DNA from: a virus
Virus record (IMG/VR): IMGVR_UViG_3300029870_000003
Coordinates: 1 to 64,000 of that record
Reading direction: 5' to 3' (one strand)
Length of the DNA stretch: 64,000 nucleotides
Position 1 is the first letter of the stretch. Each line of letters opens with the position of its first letter. Below the pieces are notes generated by a model. It saw only the letters and a program-made list of their open reading frames with translations. It had not been told where the DNA came from and searched no databases. Made by a program: the position numbers and the translations under genes. This document shows, piece after piece, positions 6,081 through 55,900 of this stretch.

Positions 6081-6581
6081 CATTCGTTGCGTGAAATTGT
6101 TATTATTATATATAGCAACCGCAACAAGGTCATTGCCATCAAAGAAGGCATAAGCTCTTTGACATATTGGAAAAGTAAAGCCGAGAAAATTCGTTCTAAA
6201 AATAGGGGTGCAGGCGCACTTTTTGTATTTAAAGACAGTTGGATGTGATTAGCCATAATTGCAATAATGCTGCATCCCAACAGCGGTGAGCATGGCTCTC
6301 AAATTCGTGGTAGCGCACGATGCCGCTTCATCCGCCTATGGTGTAACGGAAGCACGCCCGAAAGGAAACAGATGTGTAAATCCTTAACTATTCTTATCAA
6401 ATCGGGAAGATAGGTTCGACTCCTAGATGGTGGACAACGCTTCATATAAATTTATTATATTTTTTAAATGTACATGTTGCAGCGGCAACGATTGTTCATA
6501 GGATAGAAGTATTAAATAAGCAAAGCTCTGCTCGTCCGTGAGGATGGGCAGGGTTATCTTAAACTTAAAAAAAAATAGCGT

Positions 6582-11198: not shown

Positions 11199-11199
11199 T

Positions 11200-26189: not shown

Positions 26190-26257
26190 ATGGAAACACG
26201 GAAGAATGTTTTGAAAAAGCCCCTATCTTTGTAGCCATTAATCAATATTAATGGTAT

Positions 26258-26707: not shown

Positions 26708-27246
26708 AGGTAACAAGAAAACAGATGCTGGAGATTCTGCCAGATGCAGGAAGAGTAGACAGATACCTGCACTACATCAATGCCTGGGCTGATACCTTCG
26801 AGATTAATACTCCTTTAAGAATGTGCCACTTCCTAGCTCAGGTTCTTCACGAAACCGCTGGCTTCAAGTTTATGAAGGAGCAGGGAAAGGTAAGCTATTT
26901 CTCCAAGTACGACAAGGGCAGTTTGGCTAAAATGCTTGGAAACACCAAGAAGGGTGATGGCTGGAAATATCGGGGTCGCGGCTTTCTCATGCTTACCGGT
27001 AGACACAATTACCAGAGCTATCAGGATAGCGAGTATTGCAAGGGCGACATCATGAGCAATCCAGAACTGCTGGAAGGGCAGAATGGTTCCGTGAAAAGCG
27101 GCATGTGGTGGTGGTTTGTCCATGGGCTGAATGAACTCGCCGACAAGGATGATATTGTAAAAATCACCAAGAAAGTCAATGGCGGCTTGAACGGCATTGA
27201 TGATAGAAAGAACTGGTTTCAAATATGTAAAAAGGTATTATTATGA
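26704..27246 (+). CDS. Endolysin, glycoside hydrolase family 19 (chitinase-like lysozyme) (180 aa)
   Basis: HETAGFKFMKE (catalytic Glu residues) and YRGRGFLMLTGRHNYQ, compare GH19 YGRGPIQLTGRYNY. Confidence 0.7.
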   Translation: MKVTRKQMLEILPDAGRVDRYLHYINAWADTFEINTPLRMCHFLAQVLHETAGFKFMKEQGKVSYFSKYDKGSLAKMLGNTKKGDGWKYRGRGFLMLTGRHNYQSYQDSEYCKGDIMSNPELLEGQNGSVKSGMWWWFVHGLNELADKDDIVKITKKVNGGLNGIDDRKNWFQICKKVLL

Positions 27247-27686
27247 AATGGTATAACAAAGAGGCTTGGATAAGTACGATTCTGACGATCATCGTCGGTT
27301 TTCTGATTGTTCTTCTTTTGGGCGGTTGCAAGACCAAGGAGTACATCAAGGTTCCCGAATATCATACGGAGTATGTGGTTCGGAAAGATACCGTAGCCAA
27401 GACGGATAGCGTATATGTGAAGGATTCCGTATATGTTTTCCAAAAGGGCGATACGGTGGTGATAAGCAAGATTGCCTATCGTGACCGATACAGAAACATG
27501 TATAAGGTGAAGCTTGATACCATCTTCAAGCATGATTCTATTGAGGTTCCTGTGCCATGTGAGCGGGCGCTTACGAAAGGCGAGCAGCGGCTTATGACAC
27601 TGGGAAGATGCTATATCGCCTTTCTCTTCATGGTGGTGGTCTGCGGAATCGGTTTCACCCTTTGGTATCACAATAAAAAGTGCTAG
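27243..27686 (+). CDS. Unimolecular spanin candidate (147 aa)
   Basis: N-terminal lipoprotein signal (lipobox LLGGC) and C-terminal TM helix IAFLFMVVVCGIGFTLW; sits after the endolysin. Confidence 0.45.
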   Translation: MKWYNKEAWISTILTIIVGFLIVLLLGGCKTKEYIKVPEYHTEYVVRKDTVAKTDSVYVKDSVYVFQKGDTVVISKIAYRDRYRNMYKVKLDTIFKHDSIEVPVPCERALTKGEQRLMTLGRCYIAFLFMVVVCGIGFTLWYHNKKC

Positions 27687-27689
27687 CGT

Positions 27690-28001
27690 ATGGGAAAGAT
27701 TAGCGAAGAACTACAGATGATTGACTCCATCTTGATGGAGTTCCATGAGCGCATTCAGTCGGGGCGGTGCTTGACAAACAAGCAGCAGAACTCGATGATG
27801 TTGAAGTTCCTTCACCAAATCGCCAACAAGGATGAGCCTATCAACAAAACGGCTGCATGCGAGTACGTACAGGTTTCAAGGGCTACATTTGATAGACTGG
27901 TGAAGGCTGGCAAACTTCCGAAAGGAAAGAAGCGGAAGGGTAGTACTGAACTAGTCTGGTACGAAAAGGATTTAGATAAATACATTGATAAGTTAATCTG
28001 A
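27690..28001 (+). CDS. AlpA/Xis-family HTH DNA-binding protein (103 aa)
   Basis: ACEYVQVSRATFDRLVKAGKLPKGKK...VWYEKDLDKYI resembles excisionase/AlpA winged HTH. Confidence 0.45.
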   Translation: MGKISEELQMIDSILMEFHERIQSGRCLTNKQQNSMMLKFLHQIANKDEPINKTAACEYVQVSRATFDRLVKAGKLPKGKKRKGSTELVWYEKDLDKYIDKLI

Positions 28002-28058
28002 TTTTACTGTTTAATTGTTAGTTATAGTAGGTTTTAGTTAGATTTATGTTGATTTAAA

Positions 28059-28092
28059 AATCCCCACTCGGTTGTGAAACTGGGTGGGGATT
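28059..28092. terminator. Bidirectional palindromic hairpin aatccccac-tcggttgtgaaactg-ggtggggatt; inverted copy of 20710-20736
   Basis: Lies between convergent genes (27690..28001 plus, TerL minus). Confidence 0.5.
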
Positions 28093-28096
28093 GCTT

Positions 28097-30211
28097 TTAT
28101 ATCTTAGCAACGGAATGCACGCCGTCGCCTCCGCTATCTCTTCTTTCCTTCTGTTTCCACTTAGGCTTCTCCATGTCGTTGGCACTCACCCAAAGACCAA
28201 TCGCCGTACTCATAAGCACATCATCATGGTTTCCGTTACCCACGATATTACCAAGACTGCCATCATCATGACGCTCGTAGATTCTCAGCTCATGATACAT
28301 TTCCTTGTCTGGCTCATCCCAGAGCATATCATCCACAAACTGCTCCAGATTATCAATCACCCAACCCTTCGTCAGCTTGTTAGTCTGGAATCCGTATTTG
28401 GCAAGCACATCATCGCTCACGTCTTCCGGGCTTGTGGTGCGTTGATACAGGTTATCATAGTAATCAGCAATCTCATTCAAGATACTTCCAAAGTGGTCGC
28501 CTTCCGTGTTGTTGTTCTTCTCTCGGTCGGCGGTGTTGCTCTCTATCACCAGCAGGGCATCATCATAGTAATGCGCCAATGCTGCTGCCATCCATGCCAG
28601 CTTATCGTGTCGCACATGTCCACGCCATCTTGCCACCACTCTTGGTTTACCCTTGATGGTTGGAATCATGCCAAATCTGTCTATCACGGTCATGACGGTA
28701 TAGTCAGATGTAGTACTCTTACCGCCAATATCTACACTCACCAAATATCTGTTCTCAACCTGCAGAATATTCGGAACCGCCCAAATCTTCAAGTCACCAT
28801 CGCCATCTGTTCTGATGCTAATCTTCGATTTGCTGATGGTCCCTTCGTTCTTGTTTCCGTCAATGATGATGTCAGCCGTATAGAGTGGGTCGCACTTGTA
28901 TTTCTTCTGCAAATCGTCTATGCTATATGGATTGAAGACCAGATTACCAGAGTTTCGGAAGGCATCCTCCTCATCCACTGGAGCCTCGGTAGCACAGAAG
29001 GAATGCGTGGTAAACTTGTTTCTAAAGTTTCTGTACCACTCGATAGCCTGAAAGCAGGCTCCCTTCTCCCACATGCGCCAAAAGAACTTGCCAGTCTCTC
29101 GGTAGCCCTTCGGATTGGTGCTCTTGTCTCTGTTCTCCAATAGCCATCGGGCAAAGGCACGCTCATTCTTCACCTCCTCCATGTCATGCTCAATAAAGAA
29201 ACAAGGAATAAAGAGGAAGGCGTAAGCATCGTTATTCTTCGGGTCCATTGCCAGCTGGCACTTGTCATAGAAGAATCCCGAATTACCCTTACCGGTACTC
29301 TCAAACACCTCCAAGTTGTCCTCCTGATTTCTGATACCACCCGAAATAGATGAAATCACGCCCTCTGGATCATGCTCAGGGGTCTTTTTCCAGTATGCCA
29401 CCTCCGAATAGTGGGCACAGTGGAAGTTGCTACCACGCACGGAATCGAAGTTCTCGAAAGATGCCACGGTCAGTGTACTTCTTCTGATAGCCCTTATGCC
29501 GTCTGTAACCTGGAAATCATCTGGTGAGTTCTCGTAAGGCGAGAATCGCAACTTGACACCGGGGCATCCGATGGTCCAGCCCGGCTGAAGTTCCAAGGCT
29601 TTTCGGTACATCGCCTTAATCTTCTTAGACGTATTCTTCTGTTGGGCAAGCACAATGGCATTCCAGCCATCTCTGCGGAAATCCTGTAGCCATTTTATAT
29701 AGAGCTGAGTTAAAGTAGAGCCTCCCCACTGGCGGGCTTTCAAGATAACAACTCGGATAGCCTTCCTGTTGGTTCGCAAATCCTCAAATATCTTCAGAAG
29801 CAATCTTTGTGGATAGTTCAGCTTAAATGGAATCATGTTACCCGTCACCTTATCCTCAATATTGTCGGTCATGTACAGTGCAAATTCTGGGTCTTCCATA
29901 AATCTGGTTCTACAGATGGCAAAGGTTAGTGTCTTGAAATGTTGGGCATCATCCTTCTTGTGTAGAACATATTTATTGTAATCCTTCAAACTACCCATCT
30001 TTCTCAGTCCCCTGTACAGAACAGACTTGGCAGTCTTCTTGGGAACCCACATCTTGGGAATGAAGAAATCGTCCAACTCTATCAGAACACGATTTTCGAA
30101 GTTATAACACCCTTCGCCAGTAATAGGGTCATAGGTGCCATAAATTTCATCGTATCGCTTCTGATTCTCAGTTACGAGATTATCTATTTCCTTTTCTGTC
30201 ACTTGAGCCAT
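28097..30211 (-). CDS. terL: Terminase large subunit (704 aa)
   Basis: N-terminal ATPase region (LKARQWGGSTL, DFFIPKMW...); C-terminal RNase-H-like nuclease with conserved acidic residues (VSVDIGG...DYTVMTVIDRF...VIESN). Confidence 0.65.
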   Translation of the reverse strand: MAQVTEKEIDNLVTENQKRYDEIYGTYDPITGEGCYNFENRVLIELDDFFIPKMWVPKKTAKSVLYRGLRKMGSLKDYNKYVLHKKDDAQHFKTLTFAICRTRFMEDPEFALYMTDNIEDKVTGNMIPFKLNYPQRLLLKIFEDLRTNRKAIRVVILKARQWGGSTLTQLYIKWLQDFRRDGWNAIVLAQQKNTSKKIKAMYRKALELQPGWTIGCPGVKLRFSPYENSPDDFQVTDGIRAIRRSTLTVASFENFDSVRGSNFHCAHYSEVAYWKKTPEHDPEGVISSISGGIRNQEDNLEVFESTGKGNSGFFYDKCQLAMDPKNNDAYAFLFIPCFFIEHDMEEVKNERAFARWLLENRDKSTNPKGYRETGKFFWRMWEKGACFQAIEWYRNFRNKFTTHSFCATEAPVDEEDAFRNSGNLVFNPYSIDDLQKKYKCDPLYTADIIIDGNKNEGTISKSKISIRTDGDGDLKIWAVPNILQVENRYLVSVDIGGKSTTSDYTVMTVIDRFGMIPTIKGKPRVVARWRGHVRHDKLAWMAAALAHYYDDALLVIESNTADREKNNNTEGDHFGSILNEIADYYDNLYQRTTSPEDVSDDVLAKYGFQTNKLTKGWVIDNLEQFVDDMLWDEPDKEMYHELRIYERHDDGSLGNIVGNGNHDDVLMSTAIGLWVSANDMEKPKWKQKERRDSGGDGVHSVAKI

Positions 30212-38485: not shown

Positions 38486-38764
38486 ATGGAGTATGTATCA
38501 ACGAATTATAATGAGGAAGAACTTGCATGGGTATCACCAGAGATTACCTTGCAGCGAGACATCTATTTGATGATTAAGCTCAAACGCCCCGGGAAACTTC
38601 TGATTAGGCAGGATAAGGGCGACGGAAAGAAGCCTCGTGTTCCCATCCGTGCCCACAAGAACACAGATAAGTTCTATCTCCGCCTCCAGGTTATCCCAGA
38701 GACCGTAAAGATTCAGATATTCACTTCATCAGAACCAAAAGAAATCAAATATGCCTACATTTAG
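38486..38764 (+). CDS. Hypothetical protein (92 aa)
   Basis: ORF overlapping the next start. Confidence 0.35.
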
Positions 38765-39995
38765 ACAAGATACAAAAATTGGTGGTATGGTGCCGATGAT
38801 GAAAACAGACGACATCAACGACCAAGCCATCACGAAAGACAAGATTCGTGACGGCAATGTTACGACCGAGAAGTTGGCAGAAGGTGCGGTAAGTACAGAC
38901 AAGCTTCCCGATGGAGCCGTCAAGACCGAGAAGATTGCTGACGAGAACGTCACGACAAGCAAGCTCGCCGATGGAGCCGTATCAACTTCAAAAATTGCTG
39001 ATCAGAATGTAACCAAGGAGAAAATCGCCGACCAGTCTGTAGATAACTCCAAACTTTCCCCTGAGGCTGTCACATACGATAAGGTCAAGAATAAGGCAAT
39101 CATCACCGAGAAGCTGAACGATAGAGCCGTAACAACAGAGAAGGTAGAGGAAAAGGCTATAACCAACCCAAAGCTTGGAGATCAGTCTGTAGATGGCAGG
39201 GTAGTCCGTGAGGCATCCTTGGAATCCAAGCATTTCGCCAACGAGTCTGTAACAACGGAAAAGGTAGCAAGAAAGTCTATCACCAACGATAAGATTGCTG
39301 ACGGAACGTTGAAAAAGGATAAACTAGACCCAGAACTTCGCAAGGCGATAGAATCTGCAACTGGTCTTCCTGATGAACTTGTAGAAATGATTCAGAACGT
39401 TGACGAGAATCTAGCCAAGCTGAATGATACGGTATATCCAATCATCTTGGACTTCACCATCACCCCGAATGTAGGTACGATGCAGACAGAGATTCGCTAT
39501 TCTGTTTCAAGCGACAATAAGCCCCTTGTACCTGATACTTCCATCATCAGTAAGCAGATTAACGACAATGCCGCAAAGAATATCTCAACCACTCCATCAT
39601 CTGGTGGAACTCTATCCACCCCAATCGAAGGAGCAAGAGAAATCTTCAAGTTTGCAGTAACCAAAAAAGGCAGAACTGGCAAGAGTACATCTCAGACTCG
39701 CTATCTCTGCTACTTTGGAGGGAACGCAGCAGCCACCATGACCGCAGAAATTCTCAATACGCTCAACAAGGTATCAGCAACAGGAGTATCATTCAATCCA
39801 AAGGTAACAACCAAGGATAATGATTACATCTGGCTAGTAGTACCTAGTTATCTCTCTATCAGCCGTGCAACAAGTGCAGGATTTGATGTAACCCTTGCCG
39901 CTCCTCAGACCATCACCAATAGTCTAGGCAGTTTCAAGGCATACCGCACAGCCAATCCTCTCACCGCAGCTACATGGAATTTGGTAATATCATAA
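38751..39995 (+). CDS. Repeat protein (414 aa) with about 14 tandem decapeptides (AVTTEKLADG-like)
   Basis: 30-bp periodic coding repeats at 38826-39300; C-terminal Thr/Ser-rich domain; probable fibre or decoration protein. Confidence 0.5.
38826..39300 (+). repeat. 30-bp degenerate tandem coding repeats (decapeptide array)
   Basis: In-frame periodicity xVT(T/K)(E/S)K(L/I)AD(G/Q). Confidence 0.5.
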
Positions 39996-43155: not shown

Positions 43156-44229
43156 ATGAATAGATGTTTAGTAACAAAATTAACTGGTAGTGTTGACAAC
43201 ACATCACTGCTGCGACTGGGAGAAATGCGTATTGGTATCAGTAAGATAGATTCTCCTAATCACTGGACACAGGGTTTTAACATCAAAGTCAACAAGTTAA
43301 CCGTATTGGAAATTATTGGTGACGGTTACTTCACTGATGTAAACCTTACTGCAAACAATGGCAAGAAGATTACTCTGAATCCTAATGTCTTCGAGAAAGT
43401 ATATGTAAGCAATGGCAATTTTGAAGTTGCTATTCTTGATAAGTATGCCCTCGTTACTATATTTGACTATGATACTTATAGCGCAGGTAATTCTACTTAT
43501 TCTCAAAAGAATAAATCAATATCTGATATAGGTTTCTTTAAATATAGCACTGCTCTGACTTCCTTGGGTCTCAGCAACACAAACATTAGTGGTGATATTG
43601 CTAATTTGAAGAATCTTACAGCTCTGACCCGTATTGGGTTGACTGACGCAAACATTAGTGGTGATATTGCTAATTTGAAGAATCTTACAGCTCTGACTAT
43701 TCTAAAATTGTCTAACACACATGTCAGTGGTGATATTGCTAATTTGAAGAATCTTACAGCTCTGACCGATATGGAGTTGTCTAACACACATATCAGTGGT
43801 GATATTGCTAATTTGAAGAATCTTACAGCTCTGACCGATATGCTGTTGTCTAACACACAGATTCCCCTGACAGGAGAAATAAGTGCTCTGAGTACTCTGT
43901 CTAAGTGTAACACTATAAGTTTACAATACAGCAAACTTACTGGTGACTTGGCTATTCTTCCTAATGCTTGTTGTGAAGTTTATCTATATTACAATAAAGG
44001 TTCAGTATTTACATGGAGTACACGTCCTTCCTCCGCCTATATTATTTCTTTGGGAGGCGCTTCACTGTATAGCAATGTTGACAAGATGCTGCAAGACCAA
44101 GCACAGTGTCAGGTTGGACCAACAGCAAATAAGACTATCTCAGCTACTGGTACTCGCACCTCGGCATCAGATGCAGCAGTAACAACCTTGCAGCAGAAGG
44201 GATACACGGTGTCAATCACTCCTGCATAA
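43156..44229 (+). CDS. Leucine-rich-repeat protein (357 aa), probable receptor-binding or host-interaction protein
   Basis: Four near-identical 23-aa LRR units SNT.ISGDIANLKNLTALT...L. Confidence 0.55.
   Translation: MNRCLVTKLTGSVDNTSLLRLGEMRIGISKIDSPNHWTQGFNIKVNKLTVLEIIGDGYFTDVNLTANNGKKITLNPNVFEKVYVSNGNFEVAILDKYALVTIFDYDTYSAGNSTYSQKNKSISDIGFFKYSTALTSLGLSNTNISGDIANLKNLTALTRIGLTDANISGDIANLKNLTALTILKLSNTHVSGDIANLKNLTALTDMELSNTHISGDIANLKNLTALTDMLLSNTQIPLTGEISALSTLSKCNTISLQYSKLTGDLAILPNACCEVYLYYNKGSVFTWSTRPSSAYIISLGGASLYSNVDKMLQDQAQCQVGPTANKTISATGTRTSASDAAVTTLQQKGYTVSITPA
43561..43866 (+). repeat. 69-bp tandem repeats (4 copies; 38-bp identical core ggtgatattgctaatttgaagaatcttacagctctgac)
   Basis: Core starts at 43591, 43660, 43729 and 43798. 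Confidence 0.7.
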
Positions 44230-44470: not shown

Positions 44471-44493
44471 GCCATAAAGATAAAGAAGAAGGG

Positions 44494-44520
44494 AGTGTTG
44501 CTTAGCACTCCCTTTTCTTG
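44494..44520. terminator. Bidirectional hairpin agggagtg-ttgcttag-cactccct followed by tttcttg
   Basis: Lies between convergent genes. Confidence 0.5.
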
Positions 44521-44546: not shown

Positions 44547-44798
44547 CTATTTTAACTTAAGCAGTTCATCATCATCTACTACACCGGGTAATTGGATAAC
44601 CAAACACTCATTTCCTGGCTTCTTTAAGCATAAACTACCAAAAGCTAGAAACGCAACATCAACAATAGGCAGGAATATACCCATAAGTATATAATCTGAA
44701 ACTGGTGCTTCGTTATGGATTGCTATTGCAACAAATCCTGCATCAATGATAATGCAACCAAGCACTCCTATAATATAAGATATAATTTTCTTCTTCAT
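44547..44798 (-). CDS. Small two-TM membrane protein (83 aa)
   Basis: Hydrophobic helices; own -7 box at 44821-44828 (caaagata). Confidence 0.4.
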   Translation of the reverse strand: MKKKIISYIIGVLGCIIIDAGFVAIAIHNEAPVSDYILMGIFLPIVDVAFLAFGSLCLKKPGNECLVIQLPGVVDDDELLKLK

Positions 44799-44834
44799 AA
44801 ATTTGAATGTTTAATTGGTGCAAAGATACAATAA

Positions 44835-45233
44835 TTATTCAAGACTTGCTCCTTTTTGGGTGTTAAAAAATGTAGCCTGCACCAACCCACCAAGCAAATA
44901 GCAAGCCTCCTCCCCATACATATTAACCATAAACACCTCCGAAATATGCTGAACCACATGCAGCATTTCGTGGCTGAGGCTATTCATATACTCCGCCCTC
45001 GAACTAGTCCACCCAATTACTACCACCGTTTTTCTTATATCAACATTAGAATAGGTTATCCCTTTATTGGCTTCACCTTCGAGCACGAGATTACAGGCAT
45101 CTTCGAGAGGAATGCCGCTGCATCCCAAATCCCGAAGATACCTTCTAACCTTCATGGCATCCTTAGAATGAACATCGTACATCACATGTACCGTCCAGTC
45201 ATACCTTTCCAAGTAAATCTCCTGCTCAGTCAA
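44835..45233 (-). CDS. Small zinc metallopeptidase-like protein (132 aa) with HExxH
   Basis: SLSHEMLHVVQHI motif; size and context resemble ImmA/IrrE- or SprT-like minimal zincins. Confidence 0.45.
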   Translation of the reverse strand: MTEQEIYLERYDWTVHVMYDVHSKDAMKVRRYLRDLGCSGIPLEDACNLVLEGEANKGITYSNVDIRKTVVVIGWTSSRAEYMNSLSHEMLHVVQHISEVFMVNMYGEEACYLLGGLVQATFFNTQKGASLE

Positions 45234-45263
45234 AACTATAAACTTTAAATTATCAACTATAAA

Positions 45264-45677
45264 CTACAATATCTCTTCCCAAGGAATGCCTACGCCATTG
45301 AATGACGTATCTGCATAGAAGCGGTTGAAGATGAAACCATCCTGCTGATCCTCATCATCCACGTAGTCTTTGATGAACTGAGCCATCTGTTTCTCCTCCG
45401 TGATAGACGAGCCATAGAAATCAGCCAAGCACATGTGTGCGATGTAAACTGCATCATAGCCCACATTATTCTCCAGCACAATATTGTTCTTCTTCAAGAT
45501 GTCCTCAATATCATCCTTGCTCATCATGCGGATAGGCTTACCGTTCTTCCGCATCTGCTTCACTGCCCACTCACACATCTTCTTATTGAAGTGCCAGCCG
45601 TTGTATCTCAGGTAAGCCCTCATTTCTTCCGGCTGATAATCGTAGGCGTTCAAAGATTGTCTGTATTTTGTTCCCAT
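45264..45677 (-). CDS. Hypothetical protein (137 aa)
   Basis: ORF in the minus-strand accessory operon. Confidence 0.4.
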   Translation of the reverse strand: MGTKYRQSLNAYDYQPEEMRAYLRYNGWHFNKKMCEWAVKQMRKNGKPIRMMSKDDIEDILKKNNIVLENNVGYDAVYIAHMCLADFYGSSITEEKQMAQFIKDYVDDEDQQDGFIFNRFYADTSFNGVGIPWEEIL

Positions 45678-45758
45678 AATCTTAATCGTTTAAAATGAAA
45701 AGAGTGAAGAGGAAAAGCAAATGAATTTTTCACTCTTCGTTCTTCACTCTTCACTTAA

Positions 45759-46034
45759 TTAGTAATCTTCTCCGTAATCACTTCTGTAATCACGTCCACG
45801 GTCTTCACGTTGGCGCATGTCGTCGTACTCCTCATGCTCTCGCATACCACTTCTGCCTCCACGACCTCTATAATCGGGCATGCGGTTGCGCTCGCCGTAT
45901 CGGTCACGTCTGCCATCACGCTTCATTTCGCCCAGGCAGTTCATAGCCTTATCCAAGTAGCGCAAGCCCTTCTCCACGTTCTCATACAAGCCATCAAACT
46001 TGTCTTCTGTAATCTCAACCATTATCATAATCAT
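45759..46034 (-). CDS. RG/RD-rich low-complexity protein (91 aa)
   Basis: RDGRRDRYGERNRMPDYRGRGGRSGMREHEEYDDMRQREDRGRDYRSDYGEDY. Confidence 0.35.
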   Translation of the reverse strand: MIMIMVEITEDKFDGLYENVEKGLRYLDKAMNCLGEMKRDGRRDRYGERNRMPDYRGRGGRSGMREHEEYDDMRQREDRGRDYRSDYGEDY

Positions 46035-46067
46035 AAGATTTTTAAAGTGAATAGATAGGGTAGGAGA

Positions 46068-46568
46068 TTACTTGCTTGCCACCTGTTCGAGCAATCCCAT
46101 CATCCTGTCAAGCTTGCCCTCCATGCCCGAAACCTTGCCTTCCAGCTTGGAAATCTTCTCAGCCTGTTCCTTCTCCTTGGCTATCTGGGGGTTGAGTTGC
46201 AGTAGCATTCCCTCACAAGAATCAACGACCCTCTTGTGGTAATCTACGCTCTCCAGTATCGCCTTGGATTGTCTCAGCATTGTATCGACCTCCGCACTCA
46301 TGGCTTCCTTGTTGTCGCTCACCACAAGATTCTTGTCGTTCGCTATCTGTCCGTTGGCAGGTAGCTGCTTGAAATCCACCTCCTCATCGTTCAGCTTCAC
46401 TTTCACATCAACCACAGTCTCCATAGGCTGAGGCGTGAAGCCATTGTTAAAGGTAGGGTATTTCGTCTGAGGGTTGCTCACCGAAACAACCTGACCGATC
46501 TTCAAGTTCGGGTTCTCGCCCTTGTCGAGCACGTAGAATAAAGAATTTGTTCGTAGTCCTTGAAACAT
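46068..46568 (-). CDS. Hypothetical protein (166 aa) with C-terminal coiled coil
   Basis: ORF; KEKEQAEKISKLEGKVSGMEGKLDRMMGLLEQ. Confidence 0.4.
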   Translation of the reverse strand: MFQGLRTNSLFYVLDKGENPNLKIGQVVSVSNPQTKYPTFNNGFTPQPMETVVDVKVKLNDEEVDFKQLPANGQIANDKNLVVSDNKEAMSAEVDTMLRQSKAILESVDYHKRVVDSCEGMLLQLNPQIAKEKEQAEKISKLEGKVSGMEGKLDRMMGLLEQVASK

Positions 46569-46597
46569 AATGTAATCTCCTATTATCTATTCTGTTG

Positions 46598-46942
46598 TTA
46601 AACAATACCCGTCATCAGCTGAAGGGTGTTAGTATCTCGCTCGAACCAGAGCTGAACGACTCCAGTTCCCGGCACGTCTGCAACCGTCAATGCTTCACCA
46701 TTGAATTTGGTTACAGTCTGTGTTACTCCGTTGGTCTCGAAAAGGATAGGCAGCGTACCAGTCGTTCCAGTCGGAATAGCCTGCATCAGATTCACGAAAA
46801 TCGTTCCCCTGTAGTTGGCATTCACGAAGGCGTGGTTTTTAAAGGTGAACACCACATTGGCAGTATTCACCTTCACGCCTGTTGAAGCGATAGCCGCCGA
46901 ACCGTTACGATTCACCCAAGTAAAAGGTCTTAACCATAACAT
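46598..46942 (-). CDS. Hypothetical beta-rich protein (114 aa)
   Basis: ORF. Confidence 0.4.
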   Translation of the reverse strand: MLWLRPFTWVNRNGSAAIASTGVKVNTANVVFTFKNHAFVNANYRGTIFVNLMQAIPTGTTGTLPILFETNGVTQTVTKFNGEALTVADVPGTGVVQLWFERDTNTLQLMTGIV

Positions 46943-46957
46943 AGCAGCCTCCTTTCT

Positions 46958-47962
46958 TTAACCCCAGAATCCTGCACCGTTGGCAGCATTCAAACCATAC
47001 AAGCCAGCCTGATAAGCCACGCAGTTAGGAACCGCAGTAAATGGGCTGTAAGGAGTAGTCACAGTCTCAGGCAACTTACACTTGATGCTAGCCACCTCGT
47101 TCTGCAAGCCAGCCAATACCTGATTGATAGGTGCTACAGCCTGACCCACGATTTGTGAAGTCATAGCAGATGCCTTGAAGGTACTGTTCTCCTCACGCAG
47201 AGCATCAATCTTATTCTGCATTTCACGCATCTCCTGCTGCTTCTGACCGTTGACGATGGTAAGAGTGCTTTCCTTGATGGCATTTTTTAACTCACAAGAC
47301 TGGTCCTTGGTAGCATAGGCAAGGGAAGAAGCCGCACGCTCCTGACCTACTGCCACGTTGTTGATGGCATTCTGCAAGGTTCCAGTCTGCTGACACATCG
47401 CCAACTTGATATTGCCGTCCATGGCGGTAATGTTGTTGTTGGTCTTGCAGCAGCATTCTGCCAACTGGGTAGCGATTGCGTTGTTACCCTGCATGATGGC
47501 GGTCAATACCTGATTTGCAGTCATGCCCATCTGGTTGCCGACACCGCAAATCTCCTTGCTTACACCATTGATGGCAGCGATAACGTTACCAGTAGTAGTG
47601 TTGAGAGCAGTAGCGAGCGACTGAACATCGAAGCCATTGCGCTGAACAGCCTGCATGATAACAGCCGTATTGGCATCGTTGTTAATCATAGGAGCAACAC
47701 CGCCCTGTCCGTTAGGCATGAAGCCACCACAGTTGGAACCGCCGAAGAAGTTGCCTCTACCCATGATGATGAAGAGAAGCAAGATGGCAAACAAATCATT
47801 GCCCCAACCGCCACCATTGCCCTTGCCGTTGCAGAGAGCAAACAGACTTGGATCTACACCCTGTCGCTGCATAAGTGCTGGGAGCATAGCGAGAATGCTA
47901 TTGAAACCGCCGCCCTGGCTGGTTCCGTTCTCCCCGAATACGTAAGTTTTTGACTCACTCAT
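46958..47962 (-). CDS. Gly/Asn/Gln-rich single-TM protein (334 aa)
   Basis: GGGFNS...GKGNGGGWGN...TM LFAILLLFIIMG...GNFFGGSNCGGF; Cys cluster ECCCK; promoter box TAacTTTG at 48005-48012 (minus). Confidence 0.45.
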   Translation of the reverse strand: MSESKTYVFGENGTSQGGGFNSILAMLPALMQRQGVDPSLFALCNGKGNGGGWGNDLFAILLLFIIMGRGNFFGGSNCGGFMPNGQGGVAPMINNDANTAVIMQAVQRNGFDVQSLATALNTTTGNVIAAINGVSKEICGVGNQMGMTANQVLTAIMQGNNAIATQLAECCCKTNNNITAMDGNIKLAMCQQTGTLQNAINNVAVGQERAASSLAYATKDQSCELKNAIKESTLTIVNGQKQQEMREMQNKIDALREENSTFKASAMTSQIVGQAVAPINQVLAGLQNEVASIKCKLPETVTTPYSPFTAVPNCVAYQAGLYGLNAANGAGFWG

Positions 47963-48212
47963 AATAAAATAATTTATCCGTTTCGTCCACTATTGAACTT
48001 GGTGCAAAGTTACAAAGAAGTTGATGCCCTGCCTAACTATGCTCAAATATTATTTTTGGAGAGGTAAGTTATTGATTAACAGAGCGATATGCTGAGTAAT
48101 CTGCTGCTCATAGCATCAGTCCAGTTACCTCATGGTTAAAAACTCGATTTTTGAAAACTGTTAAATGATGTAAAGTGCCGATAAACAAAGGGGATTCCGC
48201 CGATAATTCGTA

Positions 48213-48262
48213 AACCAGTTTTAAACTAGTTTACGACTGGTTTACATATTACAAATTTATTA
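48213..48262. promoter_or_regulatory. Operator-like cluster of three GTAAAC/GTTTAC half-sites (cGTAAACcag-ttttaaaCTAGTTTAC-gaCTGGTTTACat)
   Basis: 9-bp perfect inverted repeat gtaaaccag/ctggtttac flanking the palindrome aaactagttt; in the divergent region upstream of the Rha block; -7 box TAtcTTTG at 48298-48305. Confidence 0.4.
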
Positions 48263-48462
48263 ACTTTAAAAATTGTGCTTATTCCGAAAATTCGTGCTAT
48301 CTTTGCACTCGTAAGTTCGTGAGGTGAGAGGCACAAACAGACAAAGAATTAATGGATTTTATCATACAATATATAATGCCCTGTCTGCACCTCTCACACT
48401 AGCGGATGGGGCATTTCTTATGCCCTTTCATTTGAAGTTAAATTTTAAAATATATATTATTA

Positions 48463-48734
48463 TGGCAAAGGATTTTAAAAATGTAAATGAGGCGTTTAAG
48501 TCAGAAGAGTTATTTACCTGCTCAGACGTACAGGTTCAGGTAGAAACTTCCACCATGTTTTCAGTAGATGAAGATGGGAATCCAGTAAAGGCTACCGAGG
48601 ATGTTGTTGCTGTCAGCATGTACGACAACGCTAACGAAGGCGAGTTCTTTATGCAGCTTAACAAGCAACATGCACTAAAGTTAATTGAGGCTATTGCGAA
48701 AGCAGCATCTTTGTTGAGAGATAACGTAAATTAG
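48463..48734 (+). CDS. Hypothetical protein (about 90 aa from MAKDFKN)
   Basis: ORF; listed longer in the track, but the upstream part overlaps the promoter. Confidence 0.35.
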
Positions 48735-48739
48735 TCGGC

Positions 48740-49483
48740 ATGAATGATTTGGTCTTCAAAGGTGCAAACAACCTGGTTCTGACAAATAGTTTGTTGGTAG
48801 CCCAAAAGTTTGGAAAGCGTCATAGTGATGTGATAAGAAGTATTGAGAAACTTCTTAATGTTGAAGACAAATCACTGAACGCAAAAATGCGTTTAGCCTT
48901 TGAATCAACAAGTTACAATGATGTTACTGGAAAAAGCAACCCTATGTACATAATGAACGAAAAAGGTTTTTCTATACTTGTTATGGGTTGGAATGGAGTC
49001 AATGCCTTAAAATTCAAAGATGAATTTTATGATGCTTTCGACAACATGAGAAGAGTTCTGGTAAATGAGCAACCAAAACAGATGTCTCAGTTGGAGATTC
49101 TCCAAATGTCCATCAACCAACTTGTTTCACAAGAACGAAGAATCGCCATGATCGAGGAAAAGGTTGCCAATATGGAGAAGGAGAGAATAGAGAATAGACA
49201 AAAGCTTCTTGAAGCAGAGACCTCTACTAATTCTGTTCCGGAAATCAAGCTCCGTGACAAAGTCCGCCAGTTAGTAAATCAATATTCTGCAGCAACAGAT
49301 ATTAAGCAGCAAGATGTCTGGAGAAAGATTTATCAGAATTTGTATTATGGATTTGGTATATCTATAAATGATTATAAGAAAAAAGCTAAGCAAAACAAGT
49401 TGGATATAGCAGAAGAACATGGCTTCCTCGGGAAAATGTACGATGTAATATCAAACATGATTAAAGAGTTGAAGGCTATATAA
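48740..49483 (+). CDS. Rha-family phage regulatory protein (247 aa)
   Basis: N-terminal NNLVLTNSLLVAQKFGKRHSDVIRSIEKLL matches the Rha family signature (..VTTSL.VAE.FGKRH.NVLR.IE). Confidence 0.6.
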   Translation: MNDLVFKGANNLVLTNSLLVAQKFGKRHSDVIRSIEKLLNVEDKSLNAKMRLAFESTSYNDVTGKSNPMYIMNEKGFSILVMGWNGVNALKFKDEFYDAFDNMRRVLVNEQPKQMSQLEILQMSINQLVSQERRIAMIEEKVANMEKERIENRQKLLEAETSTNSVPEIKLRDKVRQLVNQYSAATDIKQQDVWRKIYQNLYYGFGISINDYKKKAKQNKLDIAEEHGFLGKMYDVISNMIKELKAI

Positions 49484-49623
49484 TATAATAAGGTGGAGTG
49501 CGAAATGTACCACACCTTATTTTGCTTCTGTCTAAACTATGAAGAAAAATGCACTTAGGTGATACAACCTATTGATATTTTTAGTAAATTTGCGCAAAAA
49601 TTAACGCTTTAACAATTACGATT
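49474..49623 (+). promoter_or_regulatory. Copy B of the terminator-miniORF-promoter cassette: hairpin, mini-ORF MKKNALR-stop (49539-49562), -7 box TAaaTTTG (49590-49597)
   Basis: About 85 percent identical to 23556-23705; ends at the ATG of the next gene. Confidence 0.55.
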
Positions 49624-49926
49624 ATGAAGAAATGGCTTTTATGTTTTTATGTGTTCTTGGGATGTTTTGTTCTGAGATTGATTAGTGACGCCACTAGTAT
49701 CTTTCATGACACATCAGAGATTGACGATGGATTGTATCATCCCACTCCATTTGTGAAAAGACTCACAGAATCTTTTACGGTTTTGCTGGATATGATTATT
49801 ATGATACCGATTGCATTACTTATATATCATTTTCTTGGCGAAAAGAACCAATATAGAGTATTGATTACCCTACTAAGTTCTTGGGCTATCTATGACATTA
49901 TTTTCCATGTAGTAAAAATGCTTTAA
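49624..49926 (+). CDS. Membrane protein (100 aa), moron-like
   Basis: Signal/TM at the N-terminus and a second TM helix; own promoter cassette; terminator at 49940-49975. Confidence 0.45.
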   Translation: MKKWLLCFYVFLGCFVLRLISDATSIFHDTSEIDDGLYHPTPFVKRLTESFTVLLDMIIMIPIALLIYHFLGEKNQYRVLITLLSSWAIYDIIFHVVKML

Positions 49927-49982: not shown

Positions 49983-52900
49983 TTAATTCAACTTATCCAA
50001 ATCATCCACCGCTTCCATCATGATTCTATCAATATTCTGATTGGCAAAATTAATGGATTCCGTATCAGAAGATTTATCTCTAAGCTTCTTCCACTGCTTC
50101 ATCTGCTTCTCAGCCAGTTCTATCACCCTAACCTTGGCAGCATCCTTGGAGTTCTGGAATCTGTAGTAATCAGAATAGTTACTGATTCTCTTCTCAATCG
50201 GAACGTTCTTCGATTTCAGTCTATCCACGTTCGCAATCATCTTCTCCATTTCATCCTTGTAGTTGTACCACTTACTCTTGGTTCGCTGCAAGCTACTCTG
50301 CTCGTTCGGCGTATAGAGAAGAGAGCGAATGAAAGGAATATCCTTGGTTTCCGTATCTTTGCCGTTCTTCACCAAACCGCCAACTCGCTCTACGAATGTA
50401 GCAGCACCGCCCAAATAACTTCCGTAGAAATGGTGCAGGGCAGAAGGATTCGTAACAGCATCAAGGAAATCATTACCCTTCATATCCTCGTTGCCAGCAG
50501 CAACATCGTTCGACCAGGCATTTGCCTTCTTATTCATGTTTATCATCCATTCAGGCGTTCCTCTATATGCAAGCATCCATGATGGCTGATTCTCGTCATA
50601 CTTATCGTCACGCTGAATAGGAGCACCCTTCCAGTCGCTATTGTACACCCACTCCAAGAAAGGAGCCGTAGGAGAAGGTGCCACCGCCTTGATGGTTTCC
50701 TGAGCAGGATGCTTACCAAACGAAGAATTACCGAGATAATCAGCCACAGGAACCAGCTGAGACATGCAGCCTACAGCGTCCATGAACGGATTCAGATACT
50801 TGTCAATATCCTTATTCTCCGTAAGGTTTGGCATCTTCTGGCTTGAAATATTCTTCGAGAAGGTCATGCCGGCAGCAAAGTCACCCAAGCCATAGAAAGC
50901 TCTCTCCTCAATCGCAAGCGGAATAGTAACGAACTCGCCACCACCAATATATACACATAGGTTATTTCTTCTGATATAATCAGGAAGCTCTGCGTATGGG
51001 TCCTGCACGCCCTTTCTGTCCTTCTCATCCTCATGGCTGATGACGAAGTTATTGAGGAGAGCCATAGCCATACCGCTGATAAATGGAGCACTGGCTATAT
51101 AGCCGATGGTGCCAGCTTTGTTGTTCTTGAAGTTCTTAATCAGAAGATTGGTACTCTGAATACCTGCATTGAAGAACATGGAACCATTTCTGAACCAAGC
51201 AGCAGAGAAGCCGTAGATATTCCTTCTTGCAGTCTTGCCTGTTCCCATTTCCCCATTCTTGAAAGAGTAAACGGCGTTACCCGAACCATGACGGTTAAAA
51301 TTGGTTGATACTTCCTTCGCATCATACACCGAACGGATGATAGAGCGGTTACTGTCACGACTAGCGCAATAGGTAGCGAAGCGAGCCAAATTCTCGGCAA
51401 TCTCATTGACGTTCTCCAAGTTCTTGAAGATAGCGTCATAAAAGCCCTTGCCAACCTTTTGAGTCTTCTTTCGTTCGCCTTCGATGTGCATCTTGTATCT
51501 GTCTGTCCAGTCCTTCATGTTCATAATCTGAACCCAACCAGTCTCGCCGCCGTTCTCCATAAACTCCTTGAAGTATTTCTGAACCCTGTCAGAAGTATCA
51601 AGTGTTCCGTTGCGGTATTTGGCAAACAGACCGAAGCCGCCTGTATCTCCAAAATCTTTCAGCTTGGAATTTCTGATACCTTCGATAAGACCCACCTTAG
51701 CGTAGTACTTTTCAAATCTCTTGGTATATGCAAAACCTTCCTTTGCCAAAAGGTTAGTTGATGCAAACTCAAAGTCCTTGATCATGTTTCGCATCACGAA
51801 CTCTGGGTTGAAGGAAGTGCAGAGCTGAGCCATAGCTCTTGAAATCTTGGCAGTAACTCGTCCTGCCAGAGAATCGTTCTTATGCTCCAGCAACCCATTC
51901 AACGCCTGCGCCGCTCTAGGATTTCCATTGATAATGAACGCATGGGTCCTTCCGGCAATCTTCACGTCCACGATGTGCTGCGATTTGTTCTCCGCTCTCT
52001 GGAACTTATAGCCAATCGTGCCTCTGCGGTAAACCTTCGATGCTAAGTTCTGCAATGCCTTCGCCTTCATGTCCTTGTTGAAATCAGAAACAATCTGGTT
52101 GATTTCGTCAGCAGTAGCATCCTCAGGAATATCAGGATAACGCTCATATACGATACCGGTCATAGGGTCCTTCTCATACCATACACTCGTTTCAGTAATC
52201 AGATTATTGTTCGAGTTGTTTCTTGCGAATCTCGCAAACGCCTGTCTGATGGCATTCATACCGCCGTTCTTGATAGCCCTGTTGCCCATCGCACCAATCT
52301 GCGCCAGTACGTTAGTCTCACTCAGATACTTGTGTCCTCTCGCTCTCATGATCGTGCTTCCGATGTAGCTCTTAGGGTCGCCCACCTCCGTGATATAACC
52401 ATACACATCTTCCGCCGTAGCCTCATCATACTTTCTCAAAGGCACATACCAGTTGAACATATTGGAAACATGACCGTAGAGTTCACTGCTGATGATACCA
52501 TTCTTATAGTCGCTGTCAATCGAATACTGGGTAGCAGCCTTCACCTTATCCCAATAGTCCTTCACAGCTCCCTTCTTGATGCTCTCCATCTTTGCTTCCG
52601 AATCCATCACACTCTGAATAGCCTCAGCATCATCGTAAGGGTCAGAAGATTTCGCTACCTCCTGAATAGCGTGAATACCCGAATAGTCGTGCTCGCCAGC
52701 CTCGAAGTCGGCATCAAAGTGGTTTCTGATACTCTCGTCCAACTGTCTGTAGTACTCCTTCAGGTCGATGTTGCCAGCCTTCAACTCATTGTCAAGATAC
52801 TCCTTATCGCTATAATAACTGTTTTCCAGGAAGTCAGCATCCTGCTTCTTCTTCTCGTCCCTTCTCATCTTCTTCAGGAAGTCACGAACAAAGAACACTC

Positions 52901-55900
52901 TGTTTCGCTCCAAGCCATGCTTGGTAATCATGTAGAGATTGAAGTTGCGAATCTTCTCATCATCCTTCTTTCCGTCGAAGGCATCCAGTACGTCAGCCAT
53001 CGCCTTATCCAGCGGCTTCATCACGTTGCGCTCAAACATCTGAGCCGCATCGCTCATCGCACCCTGCATGGTGTTCTGCAGCATATAAGGATTCTCAGAA
53101 GAAGCAATATCCTCAATCTTCTTGTCAGGCACAATCGCATTCATCAGTTTCTTCAATGAAAGCATATTGTCCATATAGCTCTCGGTGAACATATAACCGT
53201 GCTCATCCAGCGAACGGTGGTATCTGTCAAGTGCCGTGCCGGCAGATGGGGTGGTGCGAAGGTGAATATCACCATCTGTAGCTTCATTCCACTCACTCTT
53301 GGTAAGACTGTCCATACTGCGAACCTTGCCATCGTTGCCGTAGAACATGCCATCATGCGCCACGACAGCAGGCATACGGTCATTGTCGAGACGGTATTTC
53401 ACCGCCTCGGCTCTCATTTTCCAATAAGGATCATTCTGATTCTTCTGCAAGTTCTTGCTCAACCAGAGCAGATACTTCACATCTTTAGTATTAGGAGCAA
53501 TACGATAACCGATTTCATGAAGGAAATCAGATACCTTATTCTTGATACCATTCCAGAAGCCCGGTTCACCCTTGCCATCCTCGGCGAGTCGGGCGATACC
53601 TTCCTCAATGGCATCGTAGATATTCAGAGGATTGTACTTTCTCTCCTCATCCACCAGCTTCTTCAAAGCCGCATTCTCAGGCTTATCCAAGTCATACCAC
53701 ACATCACGAAGGAACTTGTCGAATCGTTCATCACCAAACAACTCTCTCATGCCCTTGTGTCCAACCACCTCATGCCAGATAGTCTTCTCGGCAGTATATC
53801 TATCGTGGATATTAGGCATGTAAAGATGCACATCGCCAGTCTTCTCATCATACCAACCGGTTATCTTTCTGCCTTCCTCAATAGCAGCCCTAGCCGCCTT
53901 GTTGGTGATTTCATCAACCGATGAAACCATCTTCACCTTGCCGCCAGTCTTCTGAGCCACCTTCTCCACATGGCTCTCAACCGATGAAGCAGGGTAGTTG
54001 CCATCACCGTGGTCCGTGCGGAACTTGGTGCCGCCGTCCTTGCCCCATACCTTAAAGGCATCCTTTGTCATTTTCACGTCAACGAACTTAGCCTGAGGGA
54101 ACTCCTGTTCCAGTTCAGCCATCTGCTGCAAGAACTTCTCCTTGGTTTCAGGAGCCTGTCTTCCCGATTCAACGGTAGTGATAGGAACGCCCAGTTTAGC
54201 CAACTCCCTAACCTGATTAGGAGTAACCACATTCCAAGGGATAGCCAAGCCAGTGCCCTTCAACTGCTCTGCGATACTCTCAGCCACCTCTGAATCAGGA
54301 ACCACTCTCACCGCCTTTCTCCATCGTGAAAGCATCACCTGTCTCTGTCTGTCCTTTGGCAGAAGACTGTTCACGGAACCAGAGTGCCATGGCACAAGAC
54401 CCACGGCATCCTTAGCACCTTCAGCGTGATAGCCGCTAGTCTTCTCGCTCTCAGGAATCTCCCATTCCACAACCTTGATGTTGCCTCTAGCGTAAGCACC
54501 GGTAAACTGGTCGTTCATCATAGAAGTGGAAGTGTGCATGTAAGGATTGTAGGCAGCGAGAATATCACGCTCACCAATACCTTTATTCTTGTCTGTTTTT
54601 ACGAGATTAAACTTGCCGTTCTTTACAAGGTCTGGTCGCTCGTCTGCGCCCATCCAAGCACCAATCTCGGTAGCATCGGTACGCTTTCCGTCAATGATAG
54701 CAGCCATAGGGGAGTACAACTTTCCGTCCACCTCCTGCATTCCGCTATACATTCTGAAAGTCTTCTCCTTGTTGAGGCGGTCCAGCTCGTCCTTGTCAGT
54801 AACCTTGTAGCCCTGATACTCATCCTTGAAAAGCTCATTATCGTTCTGGGAAGCAAAGTCAAACTGTTCCTTTCCGAAGTTGTCAAGAAGCTTGGTAAGA
54901 GTTCTTTCCATTTCCCCAAGCTTGTTATATTTAGGGTCTTTGCCAATCATTCGGCAGATAGCATTTATCAACTTCTGATACCACTTCTTGGCAGCAGGTA
55001 TCTTTCTCAAAGCACTACGCCATTCAGGTGAAGCAAGTTCGGTAATCATTTCTCTAGGATTCTCCAATCCGTAGTAGTCTCCCAGCTTGCCGTCTTTCTG
55101 CATCTTGATCAACTCATTGTAGATGTCAACCGCATCCTTGGCAGCCTCGATCTGCGAAGGAGAAAGCTTGTCTGTATGCCCCTTCTGATACATGGCAATA
55201 ATGTCAGAAGTAAGAGGATGCAGCATTTCGTGGCAAAGAGTAGATGCAAGATTCTGTTTTGCATAACCAGCTGCGCTGAGTCTGTCAACATTCAGCTTGA
55301 TGAAATTCTCTGAGTGTTTGTAGTAGCCCTTGGTTCTTGCCAGTTCAATGCTACCCATATAGAACTCTGTTCCAAGGCTTCGCAAACTGTTTACGATACT
55401 GTCATAGAGTTCCTTTATTTCTGGGTCAGAATTGTAGTCGTTGAAGATTCTGTCAATCGTTTCGTAAGAAACAGGCTCATCCCTCTTTAGCCCATAAGTT
55501 TCCTGAAGAGATTTCGACCTTGCGAGAATATACGCCTTAGCCCTTTCTGCTGCGGCTTTTCTGATAGAGAGTGCTTTGTAGTCGTTGAGAACATCAAGTG
55601 CTCTTCTTTCTCCGCCTCCTCCTGGCAGAGTCTTAGCTTCTCCTCCAGTTCCTTCTTGTTGTCCTTTATCTGAGGTATTGCGTCCACTACCACTTCCCTC
55701 AGAATTGATTTTTCTGAGGATGGAGTTAACAAGCTCTCCGATGTTGGCATCTTTTCTGATTCCGTACTTTGTTTCATACTCATTAATCTTCTTGGTTAAA
55801 TCGTCAATAACAGTGTTAAGACCTTCTGATAGTGTAAAGTTTTTGTTTTCATCTACTTCCCAACTATTCAGTGTCTGGTCTTTTGAATACAAGTCGATGG

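Follow-up and report, generated by a model that had tools for sequence, protein, structure and literature searches.

What kind of genetic element is the block of seven genes that is read against its flanking operons in the virus record IMGVR_UViG_3300029870_000003? In the 64,000-nucleotide (nt) stretch of this record that was analysed here (the window), seven open reading frames (ORFs), labelled A to G (Table 1), are located on the minus strand between fibre genes and a region encoding a Rha protein. An initial annotation, made without database searches, had presented them as an accessory island of seven genes and had proposed that they represent moron, defence or anti-defence cargo. All seven ORFs are indeed present where it had placed them, and the strand arrangement as well as the protein features that it described are borne out, i.e., the Gly-rich, Cys-containing protein A with its single transmembrane (TM) segment, the tail of D, the HExxH motif of F and the beta/helical make-up of C. 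The view of a single island is not: A to F (44835–47962, minus strand) constitute one ancient cassette of fixed order with its own promoter, which hundreds of phages infecting gut Bacteroidales, among them crAss-like phages, have in common and which moves horizontally among them regardless of virion type, whereas G is a separate, variable add-on.

Gene Order and Distribution of the Cassette

The order A to F is unchanged in all 80 IMG/VR contigs that were retrieved via A. As a sample independent of the cassette, 80 contigs were fetched via a neighbouring fibre-region gene (38751–39995); 54 of them reach far enough, and the cassette is present in 49 of these. It is oriented against the fibre genes, as in the window, in 36 of the 49 loci and with them in the other 13. 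Both orientations occur between the same neighbours (relatives L092–L171, L numbers designating individual loci, versus window 44547–47962), and neither long inverted repeats flanking the cassette nor an invertase was found that might explain them.

A scan of prokaryotic genomes, comprising one genome per species and using the closer A alignment as query, yielded 34 loci from Segatella, Prevotella, Phocaeicola, Leyella, Bacteroides, Alistipes, Muribaculaceae and Paludibacteraceae as well as from some contigs that are probably mis-binned. One of these loci resides on a 1.64-Mb contig of the isolate N016-9, i.e., on a Segatella copri chromosome. According to profile hidden Markov models (HMMs), the order A-B-C-(D)-E-F, with a D-sized gap at the place of D, is realized in 29 out of 29 loci from Bacteroidales genomes and metagenome-assembled genomes (MAGs) that reach far enough, and it holds in loci where the identity of A drops to 29–40%. 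Fixed order over such deep divergence points to proteins that work together.

When GenBank phages were searched with A by tblastn, 32 records were obtained, most of them crAss-like, along with Bacteroides phage C3_41T2LP and Dulem virus 40. In the phages matched, counterparts of B, C and D follow downstream on the same strand, often together with E and F. The cassette-bearing crAss-like phages belong to the families Steigviridae, Suoliviridae and Intestiviridae, and here the cassette is co-directional with the neighbouring lysis and virion genes. Suoliviridae lack F, and their E domain, encoded directly upstream of A, forms a fusion with a D-like RG/Y-rich tail. Searches of the phage collection gave no match to A or C for phiCrAss001 (MH675552), so that the cassette is absent there, whereas its subfamily relative cr116_1 (L001) contains it, inserted after an L,D-carboxypeptidase gene. 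A 62-kb circular temperate phage of Bacteroides thetaiotaomicron BFG-119 (NZ_CP103284.1) bears the six genes at 25981–29087, about 2 kb from its integrase gene. Its layout appears siphovirus-like, with a capsid gene, small connector genes, a 1348-aa gene probably encoding a tape measure and then tail genes. As phages so different, all with Bacteroidales hosts, carry the cassette, the common factor is the host and not virion architecture, which argues for a host-directed function rather than for an integral part of the virion.

Clustering at 90% leaves 3271 relatives of A; at 50% identity, the family falls into 939 clusters, all of them with lengths of about 270–340 aa and none with extra domains. 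Exact window sequences of C and E are found on 371 and 316 public contigs, respectively. The most conserved cassette members are A and B, which are 80–88% identical to their counterparts in phages of the L043/L046 type, which have almost no neighbouring genes in common with the window, compared to 35–63% for C to F.

Additional genes occur in or next to the cassette. In L172, a 312-aa ORF (10975–11913, minus strand) is located between A and B on the opposite strand and resembles homing endonucleases by HNH/NUMOD4-like motifs recognized by eye; A–B gaps of similar size are present in L185 and L190. In C3_41T2LP (L002), a gene annotated as I-HmuI-like endonuclease (5282–5902) lies just upstream of A. 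In L089 (cr4_1) and L091 (cr53_1), A and its neighbours hold in-frame stops under the standard code where GenBank annotates whole genes. This fits stop-codon reassignment, which occurs in some crAss-like phages.

Table 1. Cassette genes, predicted regulatory elements and lysis-region genes in the window.
Feature	Position	Strand	Remarks
A	46958–47962	−	334 aa
B	46598–46942	−	114 aa
C	46068–46568	−	166 aa
D	45759–46034	−	91 aa
E	45264–45677	−	137 aa
F	44835–45233	−	132 aa, TTG start
G	44547–44798	−	83 aa, two predicted TM segments
Upstream element TTTGAGCATAGTTAGG	48032–48047	−	Kept in loci of the window group, with one change in L185; single exact copy in the window
Predicted cassette promoter box TAACTTTG (Bacteroidota-type −7 box)	48005–48012	−	TAnnTTTG match, position conserved
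Putative box TATCTTTG upstream of G	44821–44828	−	TAnnTTTG match
Inverted repeat/5' hairpin GTTCA-ATAG-TGGAC	47985–47998	−	Adjoins the promoter box
Strong predicted hairpin plus U-run between D and E	45698–45754	−	−25.6 kcal/mol, z −5.2
Predicted two-way terminator hairpin, fibre operon (+)/G (−)	44487–44516		−17.5 kcal/mol, z −3.9
Multi-TM protein	25307–25789	+	Lysis region (25307–28001)
Holin-like gene	26258–26707	+	Lysis region
Endolysin	26704–27246	+	Lysis region; phrog_181, 1e-56
u-spanin-like gene	27243–27686	+	Lysis region
Excisionase-like helix-turn-helix (HTH) gene	27690–28001	+	Lysis region

Proteins Encoded by the Cassette

Proteins A, B, C, E and F fall into PHROGs, namely phrog_16490 (A, 4e-33), phrog_31654 (B, 8e-24), phrog_28898 (C), phrog_38431 (E, 1e-38) and, weakly, phrog_1365 (F, 2.5e-5), and are therefore recurrent phage proteins; none of the five families has an assigned function. 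In distant genomes, the same five proteins are recognized with HMM E-values of about 1e-10 to 1e-130, and D is kept in position and character, including L001, L002, L087 and L088. The N-terminus of F, MTEQEIYLERYDW, is preserved in aligned relatives that have an ATG start. Searches with all seven proteins in Pfam, NCBIfam, PHROGs and PADLOC returned only DUF7841 and PHROGs that have no assigned function. Profiles built from the A, B, C, E and F alignments had no significant match among PDB sequences, so that B and F, too, are without a PDB relative, and Rfam yielded no match. The earlier statement that none of the proteins belongs to a family that can be named thus stands, with the exception of E, which is a member of Pfam DUF7841 (PF25223; 1.5e-25, 90.1 bits versus a gathering cut-off of 25.2).

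Protein A begins with a short N-terminal tail, which is followed by a Gly/Trp-rich region containing a single hydrophobic helix (residues 54–67), by N/Q/A-rich heptad-like helices and by an aromatic/Gly tail. Residues D37, P38 and C170–172 (CCC) are invariant in the alignment, the CCC motif being situated among the heptad-like helices. An AlphaFold2 (AF2) model is helical throughout and features helix 54–67, with a predicted local distance difference test score (pLDDT) of 31 that marks it as unreliable. A Gly-rich hydrophobic segment followed by N/Q/A-rich heptad helices is also found in class I fusion proteins, e.g., in coronavirus S2 with its HR1 region. The A profile matches coronavirus HR1 segments weakly (E = 0.006), and this likeness is compositional and not significant; in addition, the hydrophobic segment of A differs in being a predicted N-terminal anchor. 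The HR1-like composition probably explains the label 'spike protein/glycoprotein' that crAss-like A homologues bear in GenBank, where 'outer capsid protein/viral fiber' is used as well. An NCBIfam match to alpha-xenorhabdolysin subunit A (E = 0.051, cut-off 125 bits) was treated as noise.

Protein A is chimeric at the CCC motif. Compared with the L080-type allele, residues 1–180 are 37–60% and residues 181–334 77–100% identical, and B to F remain 94–100% identical where the N-terminal half of A is swapped. Window positions 47423–47962, encoding residues 1–180, thus represent exchangeable alleles with the recombination break at the invariant CCC. A-like proteins containing CCC were also noted in contigs ascribed to archaeal hosts, i.e., L090 (BK063680, Methanomassiliicoccales virus) and L182 (a Methanobacteriaceae MAG); in L090 the genes downstream of the A-like gene differ, and the host assignments of both contigs may be wrong.

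Judged from its sequence, B is apparently rich in beta structure and devoid of a signal peptide. Protein C combines a small SH3/Tudor-like beta-barrel (residues 10–84) with an antiparallel helical hairpin (87–165), the tip of which carries the invariant residues L125-N126-P127, while D is composed of an N-terminal helix and an RG/RD/Y-rich low-complexity tail.

Protein E is acidic and appears to be helical. In many loci, its stop codon and the start of F overlap by 4 nt, and the two genes are translationally coupled. In F, residues H88, E89, H92, H96 and E108 are invariant among nine diverse homologues and form an HExxHxxxH motif with a downstream Glu, which confirms the initially proposed HExxH zincin and by which F is classified as a minimal zincin of the HExxH...E type. 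No Pfam match of F was better than E = 0.008, each weak match concerned a single family member, and no curated zincin profile was matched. A one-helix HExxH, an invariant Glu 16 residues on and a size of about 130 aa are features that F shares with polyvalent-protein zincins (MPTase; Iyer et al., 2017, PMC5512222) and minimal gluzincins, and a giant polyvalent-protein gene is found next to the cassette in several lineages; on the other hand, F differs by the lack of a Pfam or PDB profile match and by the extra invariant His (HExxHxxxH). The F homologue of C3_41T2LP is annotated as 'PolyVal metallopeptidase'. A second, unrelated mini-zincin of 115 aa (HECLH) is encoded just upstream of A in cr116_1 (L001, 5504–5851). 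A relationship of F to this protein, to phiCrAss001 Gp4 (DUF4157) or to the HEMLH site of the giant protein encoded next to the cassette was rejected, as similarity is limited to the motif. With regard to a toxin-antitoxin pair, neither E nor F matches a toxin or antitoxin family (E versus PHD_like, E = 0.082).

Promoter, Repeat and Hairpins

Both TAnnTTTG boxes of the initial annotation, one upstream of A and one upstream of G, are present at their predicted sites. The octamer alone is weak evidence, with 57 matches in the window compared to 47 ± 6 expected. It is the conserved position that supports an autonomous promoter for A: in 161 of 172 loci, including those of crAss-like (L001, L087) and temperate phages, a TAnnTTTG box precedes the A start by 40–125 nt.

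In 38 out of 39 distinct sequences, the box is immediately followed by an inverted repeat of 5 bp or more, as opposed to a mean of 17.7 and a maximum of 25 in shuffles. The repeat takes two forms. The first is a hairpin in which the loops are similar (RAYRTT) and the stems vary yet are complementary, some via G-U pairs (GTTCA/TGAAC, GACCG/CGGTC, GGGGC/GCCCC, AGAGC/GCTCT and others), while the second comprises perfect palindromes of the type TGTAACGTTACA. The 5' hairpin of the window is weak by itself (−4.2 kcal/mol, z −0.2). The repeat may act either as RNA or as an operator, and the conserved element TTTGAGCATAGTTAGG is possibly a regulator-binding site. In about 21 of 43 diverse loci, a small HTH gene immediately precedes the cassette; it is excisionase-like or of a second type that GenBank annotators labelled 'chromosomal replication initiator protein'.

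Strong hairpins are present at the D–E site not only in the window but also in L043, C3_41T2LP (L002), Dulem virus 40 (L088) and the BFG-119 phage (L207), and they are mutually unrelated. This hairpin is a candidate terminator or attenuator that would split the cassette into A–D and E–F, which suggests that the two parts are probably expressed at different levels.

Gene G and the Accessory Reading

In contrast to the variable, low-GC parts of the window, i.e., the fibre genes (0.38–0.39) and the Rha region (0.33–0.38), genes A to F exhibit a GC content of 0.44–0.50 and do not differ in base composition from core genes such as portal, terminase, the putative capsid gene and the giant gene (0.465–0.49). 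G, with a GC content of 0.345, occurs in 13 of 131 relatives possessing F, forms a cluster of one and has no match in PHROGs, Pfam, PADLOC or NCBIfam. Its own box, the shared two-way terminator, its GC content and its rarity identify G as variable, moron-like cargo outside the cassette. The seven genes do not co-occur as one unit; A to F do, in collinear fashion, and G does not, so that the term accessory island applies to G only.

The cassette shares with morons and lysogenic-conversion genes (lambda bor and lom, HK97 gp15) a promoter and a terminator of its own, as predicted from the box and the terminator hairpins. It is also sited like them, after lysis genes, after fibre genes or next to an integrase gene, and can read against the flanking operons. 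A to F differ from morons by constant content, near-fixation in the lineage, core composition and occurrence in crAss-like phages; of the seven genes, only G fits the definition. The search for defence systems (PADLOC-DB 2.0) returned only ZorA (E = 0.034) and Cas8a (E = 0.022), both on coiled-coil stretches, and the weak matches to ZorA and ZorE were dismissed as coiled-coil noise. The missing PADLOC match and the preserved gene order speak against moron, defence or anti-defence cargo in the case of A to F, and near-fixation, core-like composition and location among crAss-like lysis and virion genes argue against hot-spot defence cargo in particular. Conserved synteny in all related virulent phages, which had been named as an indication of a structural role, is closely approached but not attained, given that phiCrAss001 lacks the cassette and that positions vary.

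Genomic Surroundings

In the lineage of the window, the cassette is always located between the fibre genes and a giant gene, in either orientation, and relatives of the giant gene adjoin it in every locus of the lineage that was mapped. The giant ORF (49983–63977, minus strand) encodes 4664 aa; methyltransferase and helicase-like motifs were recognized by eye, and the zincin site (HEMLH) is located at residue 2916. The protein resembles the 'polyvalent proteins' described by Iyer et al. (2017). Between the giant gene and A, a low-GC block (0.33–0.38; 48324–49926, plus strand) is inserted that only L038 shares and that contains a 136-aa gene, the gene of a Rha-family regulator (TIGR02681, 3e-26) and a 100-aa gene with hydrophobic stretches. 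An operator-like palindrome of 24 + 24 nt (48204–48251) lies in the divergent intergenic region. On the other side of the cassette, a 357-aa protein (43156–44229, plus strand) with leucine-rich-type tandem repeats of about 23 aa (NLKNLTALT...SNT.ISGDIA) is encoded downstream of a 1038-aa fibre gene, and among relatives no other genes of the region vary as much as these two (25–85% identity).

An endolysin or u-spanin-like gene is found at most 5 kb from the cassette in 20 of 42 diverse loci. Where at least 3 kb of sequence is available on the upstream side (33 loci), such a gene is located upstream in 11, compared to roughly 7–10% expected by chance according to our own rough estimate. In cr1_1, the A-B-C core, preceded by the fused E/D gene, is placed between a holin plus a spanin-like gene on one side and an endolysin-like gene on the other. 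The multi-TM and HTH genes of the window's lysis region reside directly upstream of the cassette in other phages. An integrase gene lies 0.3–2.5 kb beyond F in L176, L178, L200, L050, L054 and L061. Elsewhere in the window, ARAGORN predicted a tRNA-like gene (6007–6081, plus strand) with an unassignable four-base anticodon (gatg).

Possible Function of the Cassette

A to F are probably neither a prophage defence system nor a virion building block. The explanation that we favour, tentatively and well aware that it may prove wrong, is that of a complex anchored in the membrane which is made during lytic growth and, alongside holin, endolysin and spanin genes, acts upon the envelope of the host. 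This explanation is preferred because of the membrane anchor of A, the heptad-like, Cys-bearing helices, the zincin and a neighbourhood in which lysis genes are enriched, even if not obligatory. The cassette would be transcribed from its own host-type promoter and then through the inverted repeat or 5' hairpin, and the strong hairpin after D would hold expression of E and F below that of A to D. The single hydrophobic helix of protein A would serve as its anchor in the cytoplasmic membrane. The half of A following the CCC motif travels with B to F and would probably dock the soluble proteins B, C and D, while the exchangeable N-terminal half (tail, TM segment and first heptad region) might face the membrane or a partner from host or lysis machinery. 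F would serve as a small zinc peptidase and catalytic effector, with E as its translation-coupled partner or restraint. The complex as a whole could be an auxiliary module for exit and envelope disruption, or a control on that step.

Several points weigh against this proposal. No homology links any of the six proteins to lysis, about half of the 42 diverse loci are without a nearby lysis gene, and the window already possesses holin-like, endolysin and u-spanin-like genes (26258–27686) 17 kb away, for which reason the cassette was also rejected as the canonical lysis cassette. As B to F lack a signal peptide or lipobox, they could act on the envelope only if they were released through holin lesions or had a cytoplasmic target. 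For A, the positive-inside rule gives slight preference to a topology with the N-terminus outside and the C-terminus inside, and we know of no precedent for a six-protein auxiliary lysis set. Comparison with spanins (lambda Rz/Rz1, T1 gp11) and accessory lysis genes (P2 lysA/B/C) is likewise two-sided. Protein A is similar to them in its N-terminal anchor and long, Cys-bearing helices, and the cassette often adjoins holin, endolysin or spanin genes and shares with lysis genes its host-bound character and its movement between unrelated phages. On the other hand, none of A to F contains a lipobox and hence an outer-membrane lipoprotein partner is missing, separate u-spanin-like genes exist in the window and in other loci, A is twice the size of an i-spanin and has five soluble partners including a zincin, and there is no sequence or profile similarity.

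Unlikely as we hold it to be, the proteins might instead be enclosed in the virion and ejected, with A as pilot or channel inserting into host membranes, D as basic protein travelling with the DNA and F as injected peptidase. Proteins that insert into host membranes on infection are known from phiX174 (H), T7 (gp14–16) and P22 (gp7/16/20), and A does resemble phiX174 H and other DNA pilot proteins in its length of about 330 aa, its Gly-rich hydrophobic N-terminus, its Q/N/M-rich coiled-coil-like helices and the absence of a signal peptide, which is also absent from the other cassette proteins. Homology of A to H was rejected (hhalign probability 1.9%, no Pfam match), and so was an integrated microvirus, as neither a capsid nor a Rep gene is present. 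The failure of AF2 on the A monomer, as is often the case for folds formed only in oligomers, the GC content, which resembles that of structural genes, and the siting of the cassette would also be in line with ejection: in the window lineage it lies between fibre genes and the giant gene, the product of which is presumed to be injected and with which the window's type I arrangement is co-directional, and in Suoliviridae it abuts genes annotated as virion-structural. Proteins fitted to capsid, portal and tail channel rarely move so freely, however, and the cassette is known, from its genes, in tailed phages of several morphotypes, both in crAss-like podoviruses and in a siphovirus-like phage with a probable tape measure. 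Its uneven presence between phiCrAss001 and cr116_1, the lack of an assigned function in every matching PHROG and the retention of its own promoter and regulatory repeat even within late operons also count against ejection. A low probability is likewise given to superinfection exclusion, abortive infection or a toxin-protease acting in the prophage or carrier state, in which A would be a membrane sensor or blocker and E–F a restrained protease. The autonomous host-type promoter, a repeat at or just after the probable transcription start that might be a repressor site, the frequent position at the end of a late operon, with an integrase gene nearby in several temperate relatives, the E–F coupling, the swapping of the N-terminal half of A between alleles, as in arms-race genes, and the horizontal spread among unrelated phages of one host order would all suit this role. 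Effectors of known defence systems typically possess nuclease, NTPase, NADase or pore-forming domains, and A to F contain none of these and match no PADLOC model. Moreover, defence hot spots turn over their content, whereas the cassette has the composition of the core genome, is close to fixation in its lineage and remains rigidly collinear even between deeply diverged loci, and in crAss-like phages it resides among lysis and virion genes, with no integrase in the stretches examined. For an abortive-infection or protease-toxin role of E–F, we see no positive indication in the sequences.

Lower still do we rate a cytoplasmic module for takeover, regulation or anti-defence, in which C would bind RNA polymerase via its Tudor-like barrel and insert its helical finger, D/E would bind nucleic acid, F would cleave a host factor and A would merely be a tether. 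The two-helix hairpin of C with its invariant LNP tip recalls, in architecture only, the fingers of Gre/DksA-type proteins, and D is Arg-rich and fused to E in Suoliviridae. The 5' hairpin conserved in one class of loci with similar loops and covarying stems, the terminator-like hairpin after D and the HTH genes upstream of the cassette point in the same direction, as does the proposal that standalone zincins near polyvalent-protein genes are invasion factors (PMC5512222). It would be left without a reason, however, why a membrane anchor is the most conserved member, and there is no match to known anti-defence or RNA-polymerase-binding families in PHROGs, Pfam or NCBIfam. The probability remaining beyond these four readings is assigned to none of them.

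Viewed more broadly, it is conceivable, though short of probable, that A to F represent an undescribed membrane machine of Bacteroidales phages for breaching the envelope at exit or for excluding rivals, with no equivalent known from model phages. Its parts would be a fusion-protein-like, anchored A, small beta/coiled-coil proteins B and C, an Arg/Tyr-rich disordered D and a guarded mini-zincin E–F. In the literature searched, there is no description of the cassette, and its proteins appear in databases as 'hypothetical protein' or under labels that reflect composition. Literature on DUF7841, C3_41T2LP, crAss spanins and Segatella prophage proteomes gave nothing of relevance, and a search for a proteome of any cassette-bearing phage came back empty. 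Nothing known matches the cassette.

In the human gut, phages that infect Bacteroides, Prevotella and Segatella, those of the crAss-like group among them, rank with the most abundant viruses, and for the majority of their genes no function is known. As a widespread, order-stable unit with a regulation of its own that crosses phage families, the cassette very likely encodes a multi-protein function that is important in Bacteroidales hosts and for which no described system accounts. It exists in cultured material, i.e., in B. thetaiotaomicron BFG-119, in phage C3_41T2LP on B. uniformis and in S. copri N016-9, and the question of what it does is therefore directly testable.

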